Shown here: positions 40,097-52,420 of the stretch, piece by piece
How the letters are laid out: every line of letters begins with the position of its first letter
How positions within the stretch are numbered: position 1 is the stretch's first letter
NCBI GenBank assembly: GCA_903847385.1
Contig: CAINDO010000561.1
Location: 10,328 to 74,327, forward strand
Length of the DNA: 64,000 bases
From: an uncultured Myxococcales bacterium
Lineage (GTDB): Bacteria; Myxococcota_A; Bradymonadia; UBA7976; UBA1532
Direction of reading: 5' to 3'
Notes under the pieces: model-generated
The model's database searches: none
Told to the model about the DNA's origin: nothing
The model's input: the letters and a program-made list of their open reading frames with translations, nothing else
Made by a program: the position numbers and the translations under genes

Positions 40097-41926
<1,830 letters not shown>

Positions 41927-41948: not shown

Positions 41949-43382
41949 CTACTCGGTCTTCGACTTCTGCGCGGCCTCGCGGGCCTGCCGCTTGCGCTCG
42001 ACCCACCCCTCGATGGTGCGCCGGGGCGCGCGCGTCATCGCCAGGGCGCCGTCGGGCACGTCCGCCGTGAGGGTCGTGCCGGCGCCCACGTAGGCGCCAT
42101 CGCCGACCCGCACGGGCGCGACGAGCTGCGTATCCGAACCGATGAACGCGCCCGCGCCGACGTGGGTCTGGAACTTGTTCACGCCGTCGTAGTTGCAGGT
42201 GATGGTGCCGGCGCCGATGTTGGCCTTGGCGCCGATCGTCGCGTCCCCCAGGTAGCTCAGGTGGTTGGCCTTGGCGCCCTCGCCCATCGTCGTCTTCTTG
42301 GTCTCGACGAAGTTGCCGACGCGGACCTTCGCGCCGAGGATCGTGCCTTCACGAAGTCGCGCGAAGGGGCCGATGTGCGCTGCGGCGCCGATCTGCGCCT
42401 TCTCCGAGAGCGTGTAGGCGTGCACGATCACGTCGTCGGCCACGGTCGTGTCCACGAGTCGGACGCCCTGCTCCAGCACGCAGTTCGCGCCGACGCGGGT
42501 CGCGCCGAGCAAGGCGACGTCCGGCTCGAGGACCGTGTCGGCGCCGATCTCGACGCCGTCGTGCAGGTAGCTGCGCGCGGGGTCGATGAAGCTCACGCCG
42601 GCCCGCATGTGGATGCGGCGGAGATGGGCCTGCATGCGCTGCTCGGCCTCGGCCAGCTCGACGCGGTCGTTCACGCCCAGGAGGTCCGCCGCGGCGTCGC
42701 CGACGAGCACGTGGGCCGACGCGCCCAGGCCCGCCTGGTGGGCGTGCTGGACGAGATCCGTGAGGTAGTACTCACCCTGCGCGTTGTTGCGGCCCAGGCG
42801 CCCGAGCGTGTCGAAGAGGAACGCCGAATTCACGGCGTAGATGCCCGCGTTGACCTCGCCGATCGCGCGTTGGGCCGGCGTGCAATCCTTGAACTCCACG
42901 ATGCGCGCCAGGGCGTCGCCCTCGCGCACCAGGCGCCCGTACTGCGCCGGATCCCGAGGCGCCATGCCGATGAGGCGCAAAGCGCCGGGCAGATCCGCCA
43001 GGGGGGCGAGGGCCTCGGCGCGGAGGTTCGGCACGTCCCCGGAGAGGATGTAGACGTCCCCCTCGAAGCCGGCGAGGTGCGGCACTGCACAGGAGACCGC
43101 GTGGGCCGTCCCCAGGGGCTCGGGCTGCTCGGCGAAGAACAGCGGCTCCCCCGCGAAGGCGCCCCGCAGGTAGGCCTCGACGCGCTCGCGCTGATGACCG
43201 AGCACGACGACCACCCGCTCGGCGCCGAGCTGCAGGCCGAGGCGGACCGAGTAGTGGATCATCGGACGGCCGGCGACCGGATGGAGAACCTTGATGAGCT
43301 GAGACTTCATCCGGGTGCCCAGGCCGGCGGCCATGATGACCACGGCCTTGCGGCGGCTCGTTCCGAGGGCACTCGTCCCCAT
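41949..43382 (-). CDS. glmU: bifunctional UDP-GlcNAc pyrophosphorylase / GlcN-1-P acetyltransferase
   Basis: 'AVVIMAAGLGTRMKS' NTP-transferase motif. C-terminal left-handed beta-helix hexapeptide repeats. ATG at 43382 preferred over the track's upstream alternate start. Confidence 0.9.
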   Translation of the reverse strand: MGTSALGTSRRKAVVIMAAGLGTRMKSQLIKVLHPVAGRPMIHYSVRLGLQLGAERVVVVLGHQRERVEAYLRGAFAGEPLFFAEQPEPLGTAHAVSCAVPHLAGFEGDVYILSGDVPNLRAEALAPLADLPGALRLIGMAPRDPAQYGRLVREGDALARIVEFKDCTPAQRAIGEVNAGIYAVNSAFLFDTLGRLGRNNAQGEYYLTDLVQHAHQAGLGASAHVLVGDAAADLLGVNDRVELAEAEQRMQAHLRRIHMRAGVSFIDPARSYLHDGVEIGADTVLEPDVALLGATRVGANCVLEQGVRLVDTTVADDVIVHAYTLSEKAQIGAAAHIGPFARLREGTILGAKVRVGNFVETKKTTMGEGAKANHLSYLGDATIGAKANIGAGTITCNYDGVNKFQTHVGAGAFIGSDTQLVAPVRVGDGAYVGAGTTLTADVPDGALAMTRAPRRTIEGWVERKRQAREAAQKSKTE

Positions 43383-43552
43383 GCGCACACTCCTCTTTGC
43401 TGATGGACGGGCCGGGCTCGTTGCGTCGAGAGACCCCGGCGGGAGTGCATCGGTATTCGGTTGAACCCGGCGTGTCAATCGGCAGCGAGGCGTCCGGCGG
43501 CGGACATCGGGTATCATCGGCGCTCCCCCCCTTGCGAACGGCGGAGCGACCG

Positions 43553-44491
43553 ATGGCCATGGAATTGAAGTCCGACAAGATCTGGCTCGACGGCGAGCTG
43601 GTCGACTACGAGCGCGCCCAGGTGCACGTGCTCACCCACACGCTGCACTACGGCTATGGCGTGTTCGAGGGCATCCGGGCCTACCGGCGGGCGGACGGCA
43701 GCAGCCACGTCTTCCGGCTCGCCGAACACATCGCGCGCCTCTTCGACAGCGCCCACATCCTCGCGCTCGACATCCCCTACACGCGCGACGCGCTCGTGGC
43801 GGCCTGCGTCGAGACGCTTCAGGCGAACCGCTACGCCGAGGGCTACATCCGGCCGCTCGTCTTCCTGGGGAGCGAGGCCCTCGGGCTCGGCGCGCTGAAC
43901 AACCGGGTGCGCGTCGCGATCGCCTCGTTCCATTGGGGCGCCTACCTCGGTGAGGACGGCCTGCGCAACGGCATCCGCGCCAAGGTCAGCTCCTTCAACC
44001 GGTCACACGTGAATGTGAACATGGTGAAGGGCAAGATTTGCGGACAGTATGTCAACAGCGTCATAGCGAAGCGCGAGGCCCTCAAGGCCGGCTACGACGA
44101 GGCGATCATGCTCGACACGCAGGGCTACGTGTCCGAGTGCACGGGCGAGAACCTGTTCATGGTCCGCCATGGAACGATCTACACCGCGCCTTACGGGAGC
44201 GCCATTCTGGGCGGCATCACGCGCGATACGGTGCTGACGCTCGCCCACGACCGGGGCGTGCCCGTGGTCGAGCGGCTCTTCACACGCGACGAACTGTACT
44301 GCGCGGACGAGATCTTCCTGTGCGGCACCGCGGCCGAGATCACGCCGGTGCGCGAGGTCGACGACCGCAAGATCGGATCCGGCAGCCCCGGCCCGATCGG
44401 CACCCTGATCTCAAAGACATTCTTCGACGTGGTGGCCGGCGGCAGCGAAATGCACCCGGAGTGGCGCCACGCCTACGTTTCCGCTCGCTGA
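43553..44491 (+). CDS. ilvE: branched-chain amino acid aminotransferase
   Basis: 'KIWLDGELVDYERAQVHVLTHTLHYGYGVFEGIRAY', 'GTAAEITPV' (class IV PLP-dependent). ATG at 43553. Confidence 0.9.
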   Translation: MAMELKSDKIWLDGELVDYERAQVHVLTHTLHYGYGVFEGIRAYRRADGSSHVFRLAEHIARLFDSAHILALDIPYTRDALVAACVETLQANRYAEGYIRPLVFLGSEALGLGALNNRVRVAIASFHWGAYLGEDGLRNGIRAKVSSFNRSHVNVNMVKGKICGQYVNSVIAKREALKAGYDEAIMLDTQGYVSECTGENLFMVRHGTIYTAPYGSAILGGITRDTVLTLAHDRGVPVVERLFTRDELYCADEIFLCGTAAEITPVREVDDRKIGSGSPGPIGTLISKTFFDVVAGGSEMHPEWRHAYVSAR

Positions 44492-44592
44492 GGCATCACG
44501 GCACGATTCTCGCATGTCGTTCCTCCTGAGTTTCTGCTGAACCCCGCCGACCGGCGACTACAGGAATCCAGGAATCAAAGGAGCGCATCGCG

Positions 44593-45345
44593 ATGGGAAC
44601 CGAGTTCATTCGTGCCCTGGAACACCACCGCGCCCAGGCCCAGTCGGGCCCGCCTGCGGTCACGCCGCCCGCCCGCCTGCTGATGTCGTGGATCCACCAC
44701 GACAACATGCTCGAGGGCGAGATGTTCACGCCGCAGGAGATTCAGCAGGCGCTCATCGGCGCCGACGACGATCTCGACCGGTACCTGCACCCCCTCATGG
44801 ATCGGATCCGGCGCTACGCCGAGACCATCATGACCGTGTGGTCGCACGCCGACGGCGGCGCCCGGGCCGTGAACCTGGACAACCTGAAGCTCATCAACCG
44901 GATGCTGAACCCGGACCCGACGGATCGCGGTGGTCTGTATCGGCAGACGTCCCCTGTGCATCGGGACTACTACCAGCGCATCTGCCCGCCGGACAAGGTC
45001 ACCTACCACCTGCGCAAGCTCTTCGAGCAGGTGGAGACCGAGTGCGACTCCGCCTGTGATCCCGTCGCGTTCGCCGCCGAGATCCATCACAAGCTGATGG
45101 GCATCTACCCGTTCCGGAAGCAGCCCGGCACGACGGCGCGGCTCTTCACCAACCTCCTGCTCATGTCCCGCGGTTACCCGCCGGCCATCATCCCGGGCAA
45201 CCTGCGCAGCGAGTACTACGAAGCGCTCTGTAGCAATGAACCGGCCGACCTCGCCCGGATCTTCCGCATCAGCGTGCAGGGTTTCATGCGCGACCAGGGC
45301 GGGCGTGTCCTTCGCCCCGTGTCGGTTCAGGTCGGCCTGACCTGA
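44593..45345 (+). CDS. Fic/DOC (Fido)-family protein with non-canonical active-site motif
   Basis: Fido-fold helices. Motif region 'IHHKLMGIYPFRKQPGTTARLFTNLL' aligns to HPFx[DE]GNGRxxR but reads YPFRKQPGTTAR. Confidence 0.7.
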   Translation: MGTEFIRALEHHRAQAQSGPPAVTPPARLLMSWIHHDNMLEGEMFTPQEIQQALIGADDDLDRYLHPLMDRIRRYAETIMTVWSHADGGARAVNLDNLKLINRMLNPDPTDRGGLYRQTSPVHRDYYQRICPPDKVTYHLRKLFEQVETECDSACDPVAFAAEIHHKLMGIYPFRKQPGTTARLFTNLLLMSRGYPPAIIPGNLRSEYYEALCSNEPADLARIFRISVQGFMRDQGGRVLRPVSVQVGLT

Positions 45346-45359
45346 CTTCGCCCGAGCGG

Positions 45360-45899
45360 TCAGTTCGTCCAGATCGCGTCGACGAGCGTTCGCCCGTTCG
45401 AGAGGCAGGTCTCGGGGCCGAGCAACCGGTCCACCACGACGGGGTCGAGCGCCTCGCCCTTCTCGCGGCCGATGCGGATGCGCGCCACCGGGTTCGCGCT
45501 GCGCGACTGCACGTAACCCTGCTGCGCGTCGACGGCGAGGCGCGTCTCGAGCGAATAGAACACGAGCGAAACGGACTGGACGTCCGGGAGCGCCCGGAAG
45601 AGCGCGCCGATTCCATCCGCCCCCGCCAGGCGGCCCACGAGCAGCCAGCGGATCCCCTGGCACACGGCCGCATCGCGCCGTGCCGGGGGCAGCGTGCGCA
45701 GGAATCGGATCTCCAGCTCACCGTGGTCGTCGAGCGACAGACCCTCGCCGCTCTCCCGCCGCTCCGGCAGCGTGAGGAAGATGTGCAGGTGTTTGCGGAC
45801 CGCGGCCTCCAGCGCCGCGGGCTCGGGCGCGCCCGACGCCGGGCCCGCCGCCATCAGCCCGACGAGCGCGAGCGCCCGCCCCGCGGCGCGCTTTCGCAT
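45360..45899 (-). CDS. hypothetical secreted protein
   Basis: Real-looking 3' part of a junk 458-aa track ORF. Starts 'MRKRAAGRALALVGLMAAGPASGAPE' (signal peptide) at 45899. Confidence 0.5.
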   Translation of the reverse strand: MRKRAAGRALALVGLMAAGPASGAPEPAALEAAVRKHLHIFLTLPERRESGEGLSLDDHGELEIRFLRTLPPARRDAAVCQGIRWLLVGRLAGADGIGALFRALPDVQSVSLVFYSLETRLAVDAQQGYVQSRSANPVARIRIGREKGEALDPVVVDRLLGPETCLSNGRTLVDAIWTN

Positions 45900-45926
45900 C
45901 CGGACCGCATGGGCTAGGCTCGCCGC

Positions 45927-46742
45927 ATGCGCGAGCGCGATGGAGACAGGGTTTCGACGGGCCGGGTCCGGCATGGCACGCTCCGCCGGGTCGGGCTCGC
46001 CGGCTGTCTCGCATTGTGCCCGGGCGCGGTCTTCGCGGAAAGCGGCACGGAGACGGGCGTCACGCTGATCGCCGGGGCCGGGGTGTCGCACGCGTCGCTG
46101 GCGTTCACCGCCCCGAACGCGCTGGTCTCGACGCGCATCGACGCGCTGCCCGTCCTGCGGCTGGGCGTCGAGGCCTGGCCGGAGCGCGCGCTCGGTCTCC
46201 ACGCGGAGCTGGACCTCGGGACGGGCGCACAGCTCGGCGTGCCGGGCACGAACGCCCGCCTGGCCTACAACGCGCACCAGCTCCGCGCGGGTGGCTGGTA
46301 CCGGTGGCAGCCGGCGCCCGGCGGCGACGGCTGGGACGTTCGTCTCGGCCTGGGCCTCCAGGCGGTGTCGCAGCATGTGCAGGCGCAGAATCCAGCGCTC
46401 CTGGTCGAGAGTCAGGTGGCCGGGCCGGCGCTCGAGTCGCGCGTGGACAAGTTCTTCCTCTCCCGCCGCCTCCACCTCGGGCTCGGCGTCGGCGCCGCGC
46501 TGCCGTTCTTCGTCCGCGAGACGCCGCGCGACTCCGGTGACGCCGGCCGTTTCTACGCCTGGGGCGTCGGATTCGACGCCGGGTTCGCCCTCGGGCCCGC
46601 GCTCGCCCTCGCCCTGGACGTCCGGCACATCGACCAGACAGTGGTCTTCCGCGGCGAGGGCACGCGCGCGACGGGGACGAGCCGCGGCCGCACGCACGAC
46701 GCCTTCACGACCGGCGTGCTCTCGACCCGCTGGCACCTGTAG
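45927..46742 (+). CDS. hypothetical secreted protein, possibly outer-membrane beta-barrel
   Basis: Signal-peptide-like 'LRRVGLAGCLALCPGAVFA' and alternating hydrophobic/polar beta-strand pattern. Start uncertain. Confidence 0.45.
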   Translation: MRERDGDRVSTGRVRHGTLRRVGLAGCLALCPGAVFAESGTETGVTLIAGAGVSHASLAFTAPNALVSTRIDALPVLRLGVEAWPERALGLHAELDLGTGAQLGVPGTNARLAYNAHQLRAGGWYRWQPAPGGDGWDVRLGLGLQAVSQHVQAQNPALLVESQVAGPALESRVDKFFLSRRLHLGLGVGAALPFFVRETPRDSGDAGRFYAWGVGFDAGFALGPALALALDVRHIDQTVVFRGEGTRATGTSRGRTHDAFTTGVLSTRWHL

Positions 46743-46745
46743 CGC

Positions 46746-47276
46746 TCAGCGACGGAAGCAGCAGACGTCCAGCACGGTAGGGTCGTCGCACGCCGAATCG
46801 CCGGGCGTCTCGACGTCGCAGTCGATGTCCTGCGGGCGCGGATCCTCGGCGGCGTCCCAGGAGATCCAGGCCAGAAGCTTCCGGTACGCGCAGCTCTCCC
46901 TGGACTTCCAGCACACGGTGACGTGCGTCGCCCCGGGCGCCACGCTCTTCGGCAAGAGGTCGGCGATCAGCGGGCTCCCTTCGGCGACGTTCAGGTCGAG
47001 CTTCGCCTTCGTCGCGAGGTAGTTGTCGTCCAGCGCGGCGGCGCCCGGAGACACGACGAGCTTCAGGTCGCCCTGGGGGCCGCTGTGGCAGAGCGTGCCC
47101 GCGCTGCACCCAAGCCGCTCGAAGATCGGCTGAATCTCGGCGGCGAAGTCGTCTTTCCGCGGGCGCACGACGAGATGGGCGCGTTCAATCTCGCCGCAGG
47201 CGGTGACTGCGCCCACGAGCGTCAGCCAGGTTGTGAGATGGCGCGCCCGGGCTGCGCCCGCGGACCCGCGGCTCAC
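46746..47276 (-). CDS. hypothetical lipoprotein, Cys-rich
   Basis: Lipobox 'LVGAVTAC'. 9 further Cys. 4-bp overlap with the upstream gene. Confidence 0.5.
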   Translation of the reverse strand: MSRGSAGAARARHLTTWLTLVGAVTACGEIERAHLVVRPRKDDFAAEIQPIFERLGCSAGTLCHSGPQGDLKLVVSPGAAALDDNYLATKAKLDLNVAEGSPLIADLLPKSVAPGATHVTVCWKSRESCAYRKLLAWISWDAAEDPRPQDIDCDVETPGDSACDDPTVLDVCCFRR

Positions 47277-48316
47277 GCCACTTCGCGCGGGGCCACCTGG
47301 TTGAGCACCACGCCCAGGACCCGCTCCCGCCCCAGGCGGCCGACCGCCTTGTTCATCTCCGCGACGGAGGTCGACTCGGCGCGGAAGACCATGAACATGC
47401 CGTCGACCTTCTGCTTGATCACCAGCGCGTCGTCCTGCCCGAGGACCGCAGGGGCGTCCATGATGACCAGGTCGAACGCCTCATACAGCCGGTTCAGGAA
47501 GACGTCGAACTGGGGCGAGTTCAGGATCGTCATGCTCGAGTCGTACTGACCGCCGGTGTGGAGCAGGTACAGGTTGCGACCCTCGACCTTCTTCAGCGCG
47601 GCGTCCAGGCTGGCCCGCCCGCTGAGCACGTGCAGGAGCCCCGGATCACCATCCGGCACGCGCATGAGCCGGCCGAGGTCGGGCTTGCGGAAGTTCAGAT
47701 CGAGCAGCGCGATCTTCAGCCAGGGGTTCTCGCTCATCACGATGGCGAGGTTGAGCGCGGTCGTCGTGCGACCCTCGCCCGCGCGGGTGCTGGTGATGGC
47801 GATGGAACGGTAGCGAAGCTGGTCGATGATGCCCTCGACCTTGATCTTCAAGAGCCGGAACTGGCTGACGGCGGCGTGGGTCGGCGCCGTGAACGCCAGC
47901 ACGCCGGGCGCGAAGGCGGCGACGGGGAGTTCGGCCGTCAGGTCGTCGGGCGCGGGCACCTGCAGACCCGTGCGCGACGTGCGGCCGAGCAGCAGCGCCC
48001 GCCCACCGTCGACCTGGGTCGCCGCGCCGTCGACCACACCATCGAAGCCGCGCTCGGCGCTGGCCGAAGGCGCGCTCGTCGCGATGGCGTAGTTGCTGCC
48101 GCTCGGGCGCGCCGGAGCCTGATCCACGGCGGCGCTGATGTCGAAGAGCTCGATGACCTCTTCGCTGTCCGCGACCATCGCCTCCATGCTGTCGTAGATG
48201 AGATCGCGCTCTTCCGCACCGGCCTCGATGGTCCGGGCGTCGTCCGTGACCTCGTGGCCATCCAGCGTGAAGATGGAGGGCTTGCCGAGCGGCCCGCGTC
48301 GGTCGTCTTGGGACAT
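47273..48316 (-). CDS. BY-kinase/CpsD-like P-loop ATPase domain protein with degenerate Walker A (GEGRTT) and no C-terminal Tyr cluster
   Basis: Acidic, disordered N-terminal ~130 aa. Then 'ITSTRAGEGRTTTALNLAIV' (Lys->Arg in the P-loop), 'LLDLNFRKP', 'LVIMDAPAV'. C-terminus '...LNQVAPREVA' has no tyrosines. Confidence 0.7.
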   Translation of the reverse strand: MSQDDRRGPLGKPSIFTLDGHEVTDDARTIEAGAEERDLIYDSMEAMVADSEEVIELFDISAAVDQAPARPSGSNYAIATSAPSASAERGFDGVVDGAATQVDGGRALLLGRTSRTGLQVPAPDDLTAELPVAAFAPGVLAFTAPTHAAVSQFRLLKIKVEGIIDQLRYRSIAITSTRAGEGRTTTALNLAIVMSENPWLKIALLDLNFRKPDLGRLMRVPDGDPGLLHVLSGRASLDAALKKVEGRNLYLLHTGGQYDSSMTILNSPQFDVFLNRLYEAFDLVIMDAPAVLGQDDALVIKQKVDGMFMVFRAESTSVAEMNKAVGRLGRERVLGVVLNQVAPREVA

Positions 48317-48397: not shown

Positions 48398-49525
48398 TTA
48401 CCCCCGGGCCGCCCAGGCGCCCATCAGGGACGCGCGGCACTCGGCGAGATCGCTGGGGCTCTTGATGGGCACGAACCTTGTTTCGGCGCCGACCCGCGGA
48501 ACCCTGAGCCAACACGTCGATTCGAAGGCCGTGAGCTCCCCGACGAGCCGCTCGAACTGCACCACGGGCCGCCCCTCGACCTCCTTGCGGACGACGAACC
48601 AGGTCAGCGCGTGCGCACGCGTCAGGGCCTCGGTCTGGAACCAGAGCGTGTTGGTGTTGAAGACCGGGATCGACGCCTGGTCGAAGTCGGCGGGAAACCG
48701 GAACGACTCGACGATCTGGAGCCGCCCGCCCACCCGTGCGGGCGCGCCACCGGCGTCACCGACCCACTTGTCCACCAACTCCACGGAGATGTTCTGCCCC
48801 GACGCCAGGTGCCGGCCGAGGAGCGTGGGATCGAGCGTCGCGACGACGTTGTCGACGTTGCTCATCAGCAGCGTTCGCCCGCCGGTGGCCTCGAAGCGTC
48901 CGAGCAGGCCGCTCGCGCGCAGGCATGGCCCCAAGTCTCCGTGGCCCGGACCGTAGAACGAAGGTTCGCCGTCCGCCTCGATGAAGACGTCACCCGCGGC
49001 GTCGAGCCGGGCGGTCCACTGCTGCTCGAAGGACCAGACGCGCTCCCTCGGATAGCCGAAGAAGTCGTTCTCCTCGAGATGGGCCTGCGTCGCCGCCTGG
49101 GTGGCGCGGCTGTTCATCAGGATCACGATGGGCGGCGGTGCGCCGTGCGCCCGGGCAACCCGCGCGGCGTCCAACAACTTGAGCGCGAGGAAGGAGTGAG
49201 CGCCGTCGACGGGCACGACGCCCTTGACCACCCCGCCGAACCGCGTCGCCATGCCGCCGTTGAGGACGACGAGGCCGACGTGTCCGGCGCGCAGCGAGGC
49301 CTCGCCCAGCGCCCGCGCTTCGGTGGCGGCCGGCAGGTCGGCACGGGACGCATCGATGATGTCCCCCGGCGTGGGCGGCAGGACCTCGCCCGTGACGCGG
49401 TTGCGCTCGCCGCCGAGTTCACCGGCGAGCCACGCGGCCCGGAGGCCGGCCAGCGTCGAGGCCCCGGGCGGGTGAGCGTCCAGTCGAGCGCGGAGCGCGG
49501 GGTCATCGGGCCAGGGGGCGGTCAT
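48398..49525 (-). CDS. UDP-sugar pyrophosphorylase family protein (UDPGP/UGPase-UAP-type nucleotidyltransferase)
   Basis: ATG at 49525 with AGGAGA SD; 'GLVVLNGGMATRFGG' pyrophosphorylase glycine-rich motif. The track's 5' Arg-rich extension is rejected. ATGA overlap with the rlmE stop. Confidence 0.75.
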   Translation of the reverse strand: MTAPWPDDPALRARLDAHPPGASTLAGLRAAWLAGELGGERNRVTGEVLPPTPGDIIDASRADLPAATEARALGEASLRAGHVGLVVLNGGMATRFGGVVKGVVPVDGAHSFLALKLLDAARVARAHGAPPPIVILMNSRATQAATQAHLEENDFFGYPRERVWSFEQQWTARLDAAGDVFIEADGEPSFYGPGHGDLGPCLRASGLLGRFEATGGRTLLMSNVDNVVATLDPTLLGRHLASGQNISVELVDKWVGDAGGAPARVGGRLQIVESFRFPADFDQASIPVFNTNTLWFQTEALTRAHALTWFVVRKEVEGRPVVQFERLVGELTAFESTCWLRVPRVGAETRFVPIKSPSDLAECRASLMGAWAARG

Positions 49526-50181
49526 CCGTTCTCTCCTGTATCGGACGTGGGCTCCGGGGCGCTCGGCTCTCCGGCGACGACGGGCGCCCCGGTGAAGCCG
49601 ATGCCCACGAAGAAGACCTCGACGCTCTCGGTGCGCGTGCCCTTCGGCTTGAGGCGCCGGAACTCGCTGAACCGCTCGCGGAAGGCGGCGGCGAGCACGG
49701 GGATGTCCTCGCCCTCGAAGGCCTTGCACACCACGGTGCCTCCCCGGCGCAGGGAGCGGTCGGCGACCGCGAGCACCCTGTGGCAGAGCTCCATCGAGCG
49801 GACGTGATCCGTGAATCGATTGCCGATGGTCGAGGGCGCCATGTCCGACACGACCACGTCGAACAGCTGGCCCGCCTCGAGGAGCGCCTCGACGGGGGTC
49901 TCGAAGGCGTCCGCCTGGAGCGTCCGGACGTGCGGCGGCAGCGGCACCTTGACCGGCTTGAGATCCAGCCCGACGACCCGGCCGTTCGGTCCGACCACCT
50001 TGCCGATGTACTGCAGCCAGGACCCCGGAGCGCACCCCAGGTCGAGCACCTTCTGGCCCGAGCGCAGAATCCGGTGCTTCTGGTCGATCTCCTCGAGCTT
50101 GTAAATGCTGCGCGCGGCGAACCCGTCCTTCTTCGCCTTGTGGAAGAAGTGGTCCTGTCGATGGTCGGTTCGGTTCTTCAC
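49522..50181 (-). CDS. rlmE: 23S rRNA (uridine-2'-O)-methyltransferase RlmE (FtsJ)
   Basis: 'VKNRTDHRQDHFFHKAKKDGFAARSIYKLEEIDQKHRILRSGQKVLDLGCAPGSWLQY' aligns with the E. coli RlmE N-terminus from the GTG at 50181. 'DVVVSDMAP' K-D-K-E family motifs. The track's longer N-terminus (to 50622) is Arg-rich and overlaps the upstream gene. Confidence 0.8.
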   Translation of the reverse strand: MKNRTDHRQDHFFHKAKKDGFAARSIYKLEEIDQKHRILRSGQKVLDLGCAPGSWLQYIGKVVGPNGRVVGLDLKPVKVPLPPHVRTLQADAFETPVEALLEAGQLFDVVVSDMAPSTIGNRFTDHVRSMELCHRVLAVADRSLRRGGTVVCKAFEGEDIPVLAAAFRERFSEFRRLKPKGTRTESVEVFFVGIGFTGAPVVAGEPSAPEPTSDTGENG

Positions 50182-52400: not shown

Positions 52401-52420
52401 TCAGCAAACCGCATGCCAAC
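52401..52420 (-). promoter_or_regulatory. sigma54 (-24/-12) promoter upstream of pilA
   Basis: Minus-strand 5'-TTGGCATGCGGTTTGCTG-3' = TGGCAtG-N4-TTGCt, with exact consensus spacing. ~60 nt upstream of the pilA ATG. A sigma54 enhancer-binding protein (pilR) is encoded in the window. Confidence 0.6.

Follow-up and report, generated by a model that had tools for sequence, protein, structure and literature searches.

The enzymology of Fic proteins is built on a single signature motif and a single catalytic histidine. In FICD, both AMPylation and deAMPylation require His363, a divalent cation, Arg371 and the backbone NH nest of G368-N-G370; the hydrolytic water is positioned by Glu234 (PMC8373988). 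Degenerate Fic motifs are already known from Bartonella Beps, from Doc clade D2 and from AvrB. The FIC signature motif, including the histidine, is conserved in only about half of all Beps; all of them keep PFxxGN, and BepC, whose non-canonical FIC domain has no detectable activity and which works by binding GEF-H1, retains the catalytic histidine H146 (PMC8401265). AvrB catalysis is cation-independent, an arginine and backbone amides acting on the beta-phosphate of the donor linked to a nucleoside diphosphate (NDP) (PMC10866546). According to the passages retrieved from Khater & Mohanty 2015 (PMC4454073), Doc clade D2 (His replaced by Gln) and Fic clade F3 are in-silico clades in which motif residues are replaced yet selected. 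Here, a stretch of 64,000 nucleotides from an uncultured Myxococcales bacterium (contig CAINDO010000561.1, positions 10,328 to 74,327; hereafter the window) was analyzed for its open reading frame (ORF) at 44593-45345, encoding a Fic-like protein that belongs to a His-less clade departing from both the motif and the histidine. In this clade, the histidine gives way to an aromatic residue, the Mg2+/phosphate site is dismantled, the gatekeeper Glu is kept, and an invariant His-Arg-x-Tyr is gained in the target-docking flap. The best explanation is that the protein has been repurposed, its active site being rebuilt instead of lost; a dead enzyme is rejected because of the strict conservation, the predicted sigma-54 promoter of its own and the large size of the clade.

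Fic fold and active-site loop of the 44593-45345 product

The gene and the parts of its product that matter for the argument are the following:

44593 to 45345, plus strand: coding sequence (250 aa plus stop) of a probable class II Fic-fold protein lacking the catalytic His (from Pfam, phmmer, AlphaFold2, Foldseek and profile alignment)
44578 to 44583, plus strand: Shine-Dalgarno sequence AAGGAG, 9 nt ahead of the ATG, read directly from the sequence
44701 to 44718, plus strand: inhibitory-helix-like motif D37-N-M-L-E41-G42, corresponding to FICD T230-V-A-I-E234-G (canonical form [ST]xxxE[GN])
44950 to 44985, plus strand: flap signature S120-P-V-H123-R124-D-Y126-Y-Q128-R-I-C131, corresponding to the target-docking FICD flap TTQVLVGH--HIP and 3 residues longer
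45106 to 45141, plus strand: degenerate Fic active-site loop Y172-P-F-R-K-Q-P178-G-T-T-A-R183, aligned to FICD H363-P-F-I-D367-G-N369-G-R371-T-S-R374
45205 to 45219, plus strand: helix motif R205-S-E-Y208-Y209, corresponding to FICD RSDYY in phmmer and profile alignments

The ORF starts with ATG and was taken as a real coding frame because of its GC content at third codon positions (GC3 of 0.90, against 0.92 in the adjoining ilvE), its many homologues and a ratio of non-synonymous to synonymous substitution (dN/dS) of 0.155-0.17 in comparison with its closest orthologues, at loci L019 and L001. An overlapping minus-strand ORF (44575-45663) was rejected as a high-GC artefact.

A Fic/Fido domain had been proposed from the sequence alone, and the hidden Markov model (HMM) comparison upheld it. 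Indeed, a Pfam scan of the 250-aa protein returned Fic/DOC PF02661 alone, over residues 94-190 (E=3.6e-9, 37.8 bits for a gathering cut-off of 24), with no match to AvrB_AvrC or TPR, and an NCBIfam scan returned only XopAC and mob_myst_B, both sub-threshold. Against PDB sequences, phmmer found FICD/Fic-1 at E=3e-15, and the profile of the core orthologue family described below aligned with FICD at E=1e-22 over residues 21-223. An AlphaFold2 (AF2) model built from 55 core-family sequences reached a predicted local distance difference test (pLDDT) score of 91.1 and a predicted template modelling (pTM) score of 0.89. The Foldseek search of this model against PDB listed Fic proteins at all of its top 50 ranks, with TM-scores of 0.69-0.76 for FICD, so that the fold on which the earlier assignment depended was recovered. 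The all-helical Fido fold is thus predicted with high confidence to be intact, and the product is best explained as a Fic-fold protein of the FICD-like class II, made of a single domain and located in the cytoplasm.

The loop, YPFRKQPGTTAR, aligned column for column with HPFxDGNGRxxR. In the phmmer alignments, 'iYPFrkqPGttARL' stood opposite 'vHPFtdgNGrtARL' and, with the following helix included, 'giYPFrkqPGttARLftnlllmsrGYPP' stood opposite 'yiHPFidgNGrtsRLlmnlilmqaGYPP'. The signature HxFx(D/E)GN(G/K)RxxR is not present; of its residues, P, F, the second G and the final R alone survive. The sequence-only reading had placed the motif by its position and its retained TAR tail, with Tyr for His and a K-Q-P-G-T core, which is exactly what the HMM alignments give; an intact motif elsewhere, which would have displaced this placement, was not encountered, as a regular-expression search for H.F.[DEN][GA]N[GK]R found none in the six frames of 44300-45600. 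The residues map onto FICD as follows, the roles given being those in FICD:

Y172, at FICD H363: catalytic residue in FICD
K176, at FICD D367: Mg2+ ligand
Q177-P178-G179, at FICD G368-N369-G370: anion-binding nest
T180, at FICD R371: phosphate contact
R183, at FICD R374: partner of the gatekeeper Glu

A proline at the position of Asn369 takes one backbone NH out of the anion nest. As judged from these alignments, canonical AMPylation and deAMPylation by the 44593-45345 product are excluded because of four independent counts, namely the replacement of His by Tyr, of the Mg2+-binding acid by Lys/Arg, of the nest Asn by Pro and of Arg by Thr.

In the inhibitory-helix-like motif, the profile alignment sets E41 onto the FICD gatekeeper Glu234 (TVAIEG). 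The S/T position of [S/T]xxxE[G/N] is an invariant Asp and the literal motif is therefore absent, E41, G42 and the partner R183 being invariant. No stretch of the protein is more conserved than the flap, which is also the least confident part of the AF2 model (pLDDT 67-73).

The core family and the wider His-less clade

A first homology search retrieved 92 orthologue clusters of about 250 aa and 40-88% identity, together with one canonical Fic outgroup. All named sources of these core-family clusters were metagenome-assembled genomes (MAGs) of Myxococcota/Bradymonadia. The loop was almost invariant, with the consensus Y-P-F-R-[RK]-[NQ]-P-G-T-T-x-R: over 91 sequences, the successive counts were Y 90, P 91, R 89, R/K 90, N/Q 87, P 90, G 91, T 83, T 80 and terminal R 91. 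Thirty columns were invariant across 55 representatives, down to 40% identity (invariant-column counts were drawn from alignments of 55-93 sequences). They include D37, E41, G42, R117, S120-P-V-H-R, Y126, Q128, I130 and C131, followed by H165, Y172, P173, P178, G179, R183, R205 and Y208, and Y209 was kept in more than 90% of core-family sequences. The sequence-only reading had suggested an inactive, pseudo-enzymatic or mechanistically divergent Fic protein. Inactivity in the sense of decay does not hold, considering a loop near invariant in about 90 clusters and a dN/dS of about 0.16.

An exhaustive profile search, covering 1.84 billion representatives, gave about 10 core-family representatives above 200 bits and then a tier at E 1e-51 to 1e-22 with the loop [FY]P[FW]xxxSGK[VI][AG]R, the first canonical HPFxDGNGR sequence appearing at about rank 143. 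When compared by hhalign, the core family and this wider clade aligned over 237 columns with a probability of 100% (E=2.4e-59, 32% identity), the signatures SWIxHDxxLEG, flap, loop and ERQxYY being common to both. Further searches yielded more than 900 clusters of the His-less clade, a saturated count and thus a lower bound, and 1,431 clusters. According to these comparisons, the core family is one branch of a very large, apparently vertically inherited His-less Fic clade of well over 1,000 clusters.

Among 249 wider-clade sequences, the former His position was Tyr in 144, Phe in 91 and Trp in 5, the Asn position was Ser in 213, and the first Arg position was Lys in 187 and Arg in 36; the last Arg was invariant and loop positions 4-6 varied freely. 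The flap read P-x-H-R-x-Y-[FY]-H, with the first His in 212, the Arg and the Tyr in all, and the last His in 211 of 213 sequences, and the gatekeeper EG of DxxxEG was kept in 206 of 214. The window's protein shows all the hallmarks of the clade, i.e., an aromatic residue at the His position, xxx[SP]G..R, DxxxEG and the flap P-x-H-R-x-Y-[FY]-[HQ]. Wider-clade members came from Polyangiales, Sandaracinaceae and one Bacteroidota MAG, and the cultured hosts are Sorangium cellulosum, many Sorangium sp. strains and Chondromyces crocatus. Named database members are all labelled 'Fic family protein', 'hypothetical protein' or 'protein-threonine AMPylation protein', and the AMPylation label is almost certainly wrong. 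Full-text literature searches found no description of the clade, of its loop (His to aromatic, N-G-R to S-G-K or P-G-T) or of the flap H-R-x-Y signature.

Many Polyangiaceae members (Sorangium, Chondromyces) carry N-terminal tails of 100-450 aa, rich in Lys, Ala and Pro and resembling histone H1/HC2, and there are hints of a DNA-associated role for this tail-bearing subclade. Examples are P0103, P0109, P0110 and P0124, as well as L039 6001-8040, L040 5001-9896 and L041 5001-6245. In two of three such loci, an HhH-GPD DNA glycosylase directly follows the tail-bearing Fic-like gene, with a UvrA paralogue in addition in one. Directly upstream of the tail-bearing gene, L040 (4579-5004) and L041 (4580-4960) have an ORF of 126-141 aa with no Pfam match, which overlaps that gene by 4 bp in L040; before this ORF comes a giant Ser/Thr-kinase-TPR protein. 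This ORF, absent from the window, is a possible partner in the tail-bearing subclade. Besides, P0104 (788 aa, on a 4.2-kb ENA contig) appears to combine YjeF_N and Carb_kinase, for NAD(P)HX repair, with a long linker and a His-less Fic domain, and could be either a real fusion or a gene-calling artefact.

Putative sigma-54 promoter and genomic setting

Upstream of the Fic-like gene lies a candidate promoter:

44500 to 44514, plus strand: sigma-54 (RpoN)-type -24/-12 element GGCACGATTCTCGCA, with GG at 44500-44501 and GC at 44512-44513

The element is located 8 nt past the ilvE stop and 93 nt ahead of the Fic-like ATG; transcription is predicted to start at about 44525, leaving a 5' untranslated region of about 68 nt. 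Its GG and GC are exactly 10 nt apart on the coding strand (TGGCAC-N5-TTGCW), as in the sigma-54 pattern. The 64-kb window contains no other strict match, but this single one is not significant alone, at least one match being found in 31 of 100 shuffles, and the loose pattern was observed 6 times in the window for 6.8 expected. The promoter claim is therefore based on cross-species conservation and not on the single window match. Within the 100 nt upstream of orthologue starts, a GGCACG-N4-TYGCA block was common. Of 28 orthologous loci, 21 had the loose pattern on the coding strand at 48-98 nt ahead of the gene, for a background of 0.13 per kb over both strands. A weighted consensus score of at least 19 out of 22 was reached in 22 of the 28 loci versus 0.8% of random 160-nt windows, and a score of at least 18 in 26 loci versus 3.4%. 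In the anchored profile, whose weighted columns are inflated by the picking of the best site, information was confined to YGGCAYG and YGCA, the 4-nt spacer and the flanks being at about 0 bits. The element persists in loci without ilvE (L001, L019); wider-clade loci do not have it.

Between ilvE and the Fic-like gene, a scan found neither a terminator nor a sigma-70 promoter. Obligatory membership of an ilvE operon was rejected, given that a conserved sigma-54 element occupies the gap and persists where ilvE is absent. The Fic-like gene probably constitutes an independent RpoN-dependent transcription unit. No gene for a bacterial enhancer-binding protein (bEBP) is adjacent to it. The nearest candidate for a sigma-54 activator, about 18 kb away, is an ORF at about 63626 on the plus strand, which runs off the window end and carries the GSFTGA bEBP signature in a Walker-type context. 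A second good sigma-54-like match, GGCATGCGGTTTGCT, lies at 52403-52417 on the minus strand.

The upstream neighbour, ilvE, encodes a class IV aminotransferase (PF01063, E=2e-54), and the downstream neighbour is a convergent gene for a secreted protein. The genes annotated around ilvE and the Fic-like gene are:

40097 to 41926, minus strand: glmS
41949 to 43517, minus strand: glmU
45360 to 45926, minus strand: small gene with a signal-peptide or lipoprotein-like N-terminus, no Pfam or PADLOC match
45927 to 46742, plus strand: small gene with a signal-peptide or lipoprotein-like N-terminus, no Pfam or PADLOC match
46746 to 47276, minus strand: small Cys-rich gene with a signal-peptide or lipoprotein-like N-terminus, no Pfam or PADLOC match
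47273 to 48316, minus strand: P-loop ATPase resembling a BY-kinase, sub-threshold ParA/AAA_31 matches
48398 to 50035, minus strand: UDPGP-family pyrophosphorylase with an N-terminal extension of about 250 aa

These neighbours agree with the earlier description of a gene sitting alone between ilvE and small secreted or lipoprotein genes, a description that is sharpened by the conserved sigma-54-type element of its own. The glmS, glmU, UDPGP-family and P-loop ATPase genes give the surroundings a UDP-sugar/polysaccharide theme. An Rfam scan found nothing in the window.

Over 29 loci from 28 species-level genomes, the order glmS(-) glmU(-) ilvE(+) Fic-like(+) small secreted(-) beta-barrel-like(+) lipoprotein(-) was kept down to 41% identity of the Fic-like protein, which is single-copy. 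In L001 and L019, the closest relatives with 80-82% identity, no ilvE lies between glmU and the Fic-like gene (L001 7566-8001; L019 7509-8001), so that ilvE cannot be a required partner. The upstream gene of L013 and L024 shares just 28-31% identity with the window ilvE and is therefore a different class IV aminotransferase. The three small downstream genes are syntenic in most of the 28 genomes and do not accompany wider-clade Fic-like genes, whose neighbourhoods are lineage-specific (AhpC/Trx with a histidine kinase and thiE; lysA; argH; an RND pump with MscS; HhH-GPD with UvrA). No antitoxin, mobile-element or defence context was found at the examined loci, and no small partner ORF adjoins the gene in the window.

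Possible functions and comparison with known systems

The explanation tentatively favoured, with a probability of roughly 0.45, is a repurposed groove that binds a phosphate ligand or a target and acts by binding or regulation. The old nucleotide/target slot would have become a basic groove surrounded by R117, H123, R124, Y126, R175, K/R176, R183, R205 and Y208. It would hold either a small ligand that carries a phosphate or, on a conserved housekeeping partner, a segment that is phosphorylated or nucleotidylated. The protein would sense, sequester or regulate what it holds by binding, with no group transfer, and an enhancer-binding protein would turn the gene on when needed, through the sigma-54 promoter of the gene itself. 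Constraint is very strong around the old site, i.e., on the loop, on Glu41 and its canonical salt-bridge partner Arg183, on the RxxYY helix, on Arg117 and on the flap signature, and, judging from the alignment with FICD, the invariant flap residues and Glu41 would cluster there in space. Because Tyr, Phe and Trp all occur at the His position (144, 91 and 5 sequences), a hydroxyl is not required clade-wide, which suggests a packing or binding role and not a nucleophile. Tyr172 as a covalent nucleophile is accordingly disfavoured, the residue there being Phe or Trp in about 40% of sister-clade sequences. The drift of loop positions 4-6 is likewise not what precise catalytic geometry would lead one to expect in the wider clade. 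A binding role is favoured because of these two features and of the BepC precedent, and the gene is found in a housekeeping, single-copy and syntenic setting, free of antitoxins and mobile elements.

Several points weigh against binding or regulation. The invariant His123, Arg124, Tyr126, Gln/His128 and Glu41 resemble an enzyme or a specific site for a small molecule more than they do a docking surface. Target binding by the canonical Fic flap is sequence-independent and needs no such side-chain conservation (PMC8373988), and AvrB, long held to be non-enzymatic, proved to be a metal-independent glycosyltransferase (PMC10866546). Moreover, no universal partner emerged from the neighbourhoods, whose contexts differ between lineages.

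An alternative that is nearly as probable is a rewired enzyme whose catalytic centre has shifted from the loop to the flap and which would carry out a metal-independent reaction on a phosphate-linked substrate. His123, Arg124, Tyr126 and Gln128 of the flap would form the site with the gatekeeper Glu41 and Arg183, and the reaction could be the hydrolysis of a phosphodiester-linked modification, or the transfer of X from NDP-X, much as UDP-rhamnose serves AvrB. Indeed, core family and wider clade, with an overall identity of about 30%, both have the invariant flap P-x-H-R-x-Y-[FY]-[HQ], and its His123 is the second residue after the flap-start Pro (P121). In Bep and IbpA structures, this position points inward and walls the target side-chain slot beside the catalytic His (PMC8401265). 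Glu41 and Gly42 are invariant though no AMPylation is left to inhibit, and the Glu of FICD positions the hydrolytic water; the Glu-Arg pair could, however, have been retained for its structural role alone. Within the core family the loop hardly varies, but Pro178 takes one backbone NH from the anion nest there. As AvrB catalyses without the motif, its loss need not mean the loss of catalysis: AvrB is a His-less, cation-independent Fido transferase in which Arg and Gly bind the beta-phosphate (PMC10866546). UDP-sugar genes (glmS, glmU and the UDPGP-family gene) surround the gene in the window's lineage, although this neighbourhood is not common to the wider clade, and the flap on which the whole proposal is centred is the least confident part of the model.

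That the His-less clade as a whole is a new class of Fido enzymes, flap-centred and metal-independent, seems unlikely. In such a class, AvrB-like UDP-sugar transfer might apply in the window's lineage, since the gene lies between glmS-glmU and the UDPGP-family gene, and a DNA or chromatin substrate might apply in the Sorangium and Chondromyces relatives, which have histone-H1-like tails and HhH-GPD and UvrA neighbours.

The remaining explanations have little in their favour. A conventional AMP- or other nucleoside monophosphate transferase, with Tyr172 replacing His as the base, would account for the Fic fold, the retained terminal Arg and the RxxYY helix, but is very improbable: four elements are altered together (His to Tyr, Asp/Glu to Lys/Arg, Asn to Pro, Arg to Thr), Phe stands instead of Tyr in 91 of 249 sister-clade sequences, and the gatekeeper Glu blocking productive ATP binding is invariant. 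Hardly more credible is a toxin, active or inactivated, of a FicTA-type toxin-antitoxin or phage-defence module. It could be suggested by weak generic matches to the PADLOC Fic models SoFic and PDC-S04 (19-29 bits), but no small partner ORF is present next to ilvE and the convergent secreted-protein gene, the putative inhibitory helix is intramolecular (as in class II), and the gene keeps its place near glmS-glmU across 28 species, has a native GC3 and shows no mobile elements around it. Finally, a decaying, functionless Fic relic, to which the loss of every canonical catalytic residue could point, is refuted by the conservation data, the ORF being intact in 28 species with 30 columns invariant to 40% identity, a dN/dS of about 0.16 and a conserved putative promoter and ribosome-binding site.

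If the members of the clade are pseudoenzymes, they would represent a large bacterial Fic family with a housekeeping, non-effector role; if they are enzymes, as with AvrB, their Fido chemistry would be an unrecognised one. The signature residues and the cultured hosts (Sorangium, Chondromyces) make this question directly testable, and the conserved putative sigma-54 promoter offers a handle on when the protein is needed.

Among known systems, Doc proteins lack the flap and belong to toxin-antitoxin modules, whereas the window's protein has a long conserved flap and a loop different from HxFx(D/N)(A/G)NKR; its loop and flap signature are not among the passages retrieved from Khater & Mohanty 2015 (PMC4454073). 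Nor does it have the adjacent small antitoxin and the mobile or variable context of class I FicTA systems. AvrB and AvrC have, like it, a Fido fold without the catalytic His motif, but are plant effectors of type III secretion systems with no detectable sequence similarity to it. FIC domains of the Bartonella BepC/Bep8 type likewise combine a canonical fold with a degenerate signature motif. However, Beps are class I (antitoxin-derived) effectors of type IV secretion systems, with OB and BID domains and a host-associated lifestyle, whereas the gene studied here is chromosomal, in a housekeeping context, in free-living Myxococcota.

The best match in both sequence and structure is with the class II AMPylase/deAMPylase FICD/HYPE and Fic-1 (PDB 4u04, 6i7g, 5jj6). 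FICD and the window's protein have in common the terminal motif Arg (the R374 equivalent), the RxxYY helix, the GYPP turn and an ...AxxxHxxL... helix ahead of the loop, and an N-terminal segment of the window's protein, with a Glu aligned to Glu234, resembles the intramolecular inhibitory helix. The protein differs from FICD/HYPE orthologues in having no N-terminal membrane anchor or transmembrane segment and no TPR region, within 250 aa whose alignment with FICD begins at residue 21. In addition, His363 is replaced by Tyr, Asp367 by Lys, Gly368 by Gln, Asn369 by Pro and Arg371 by Thr, the inhibitory S/T has become Asp, and the flap is 3 residues longer and bears the invariant H-R-x-Y signature that is absent from FICD.

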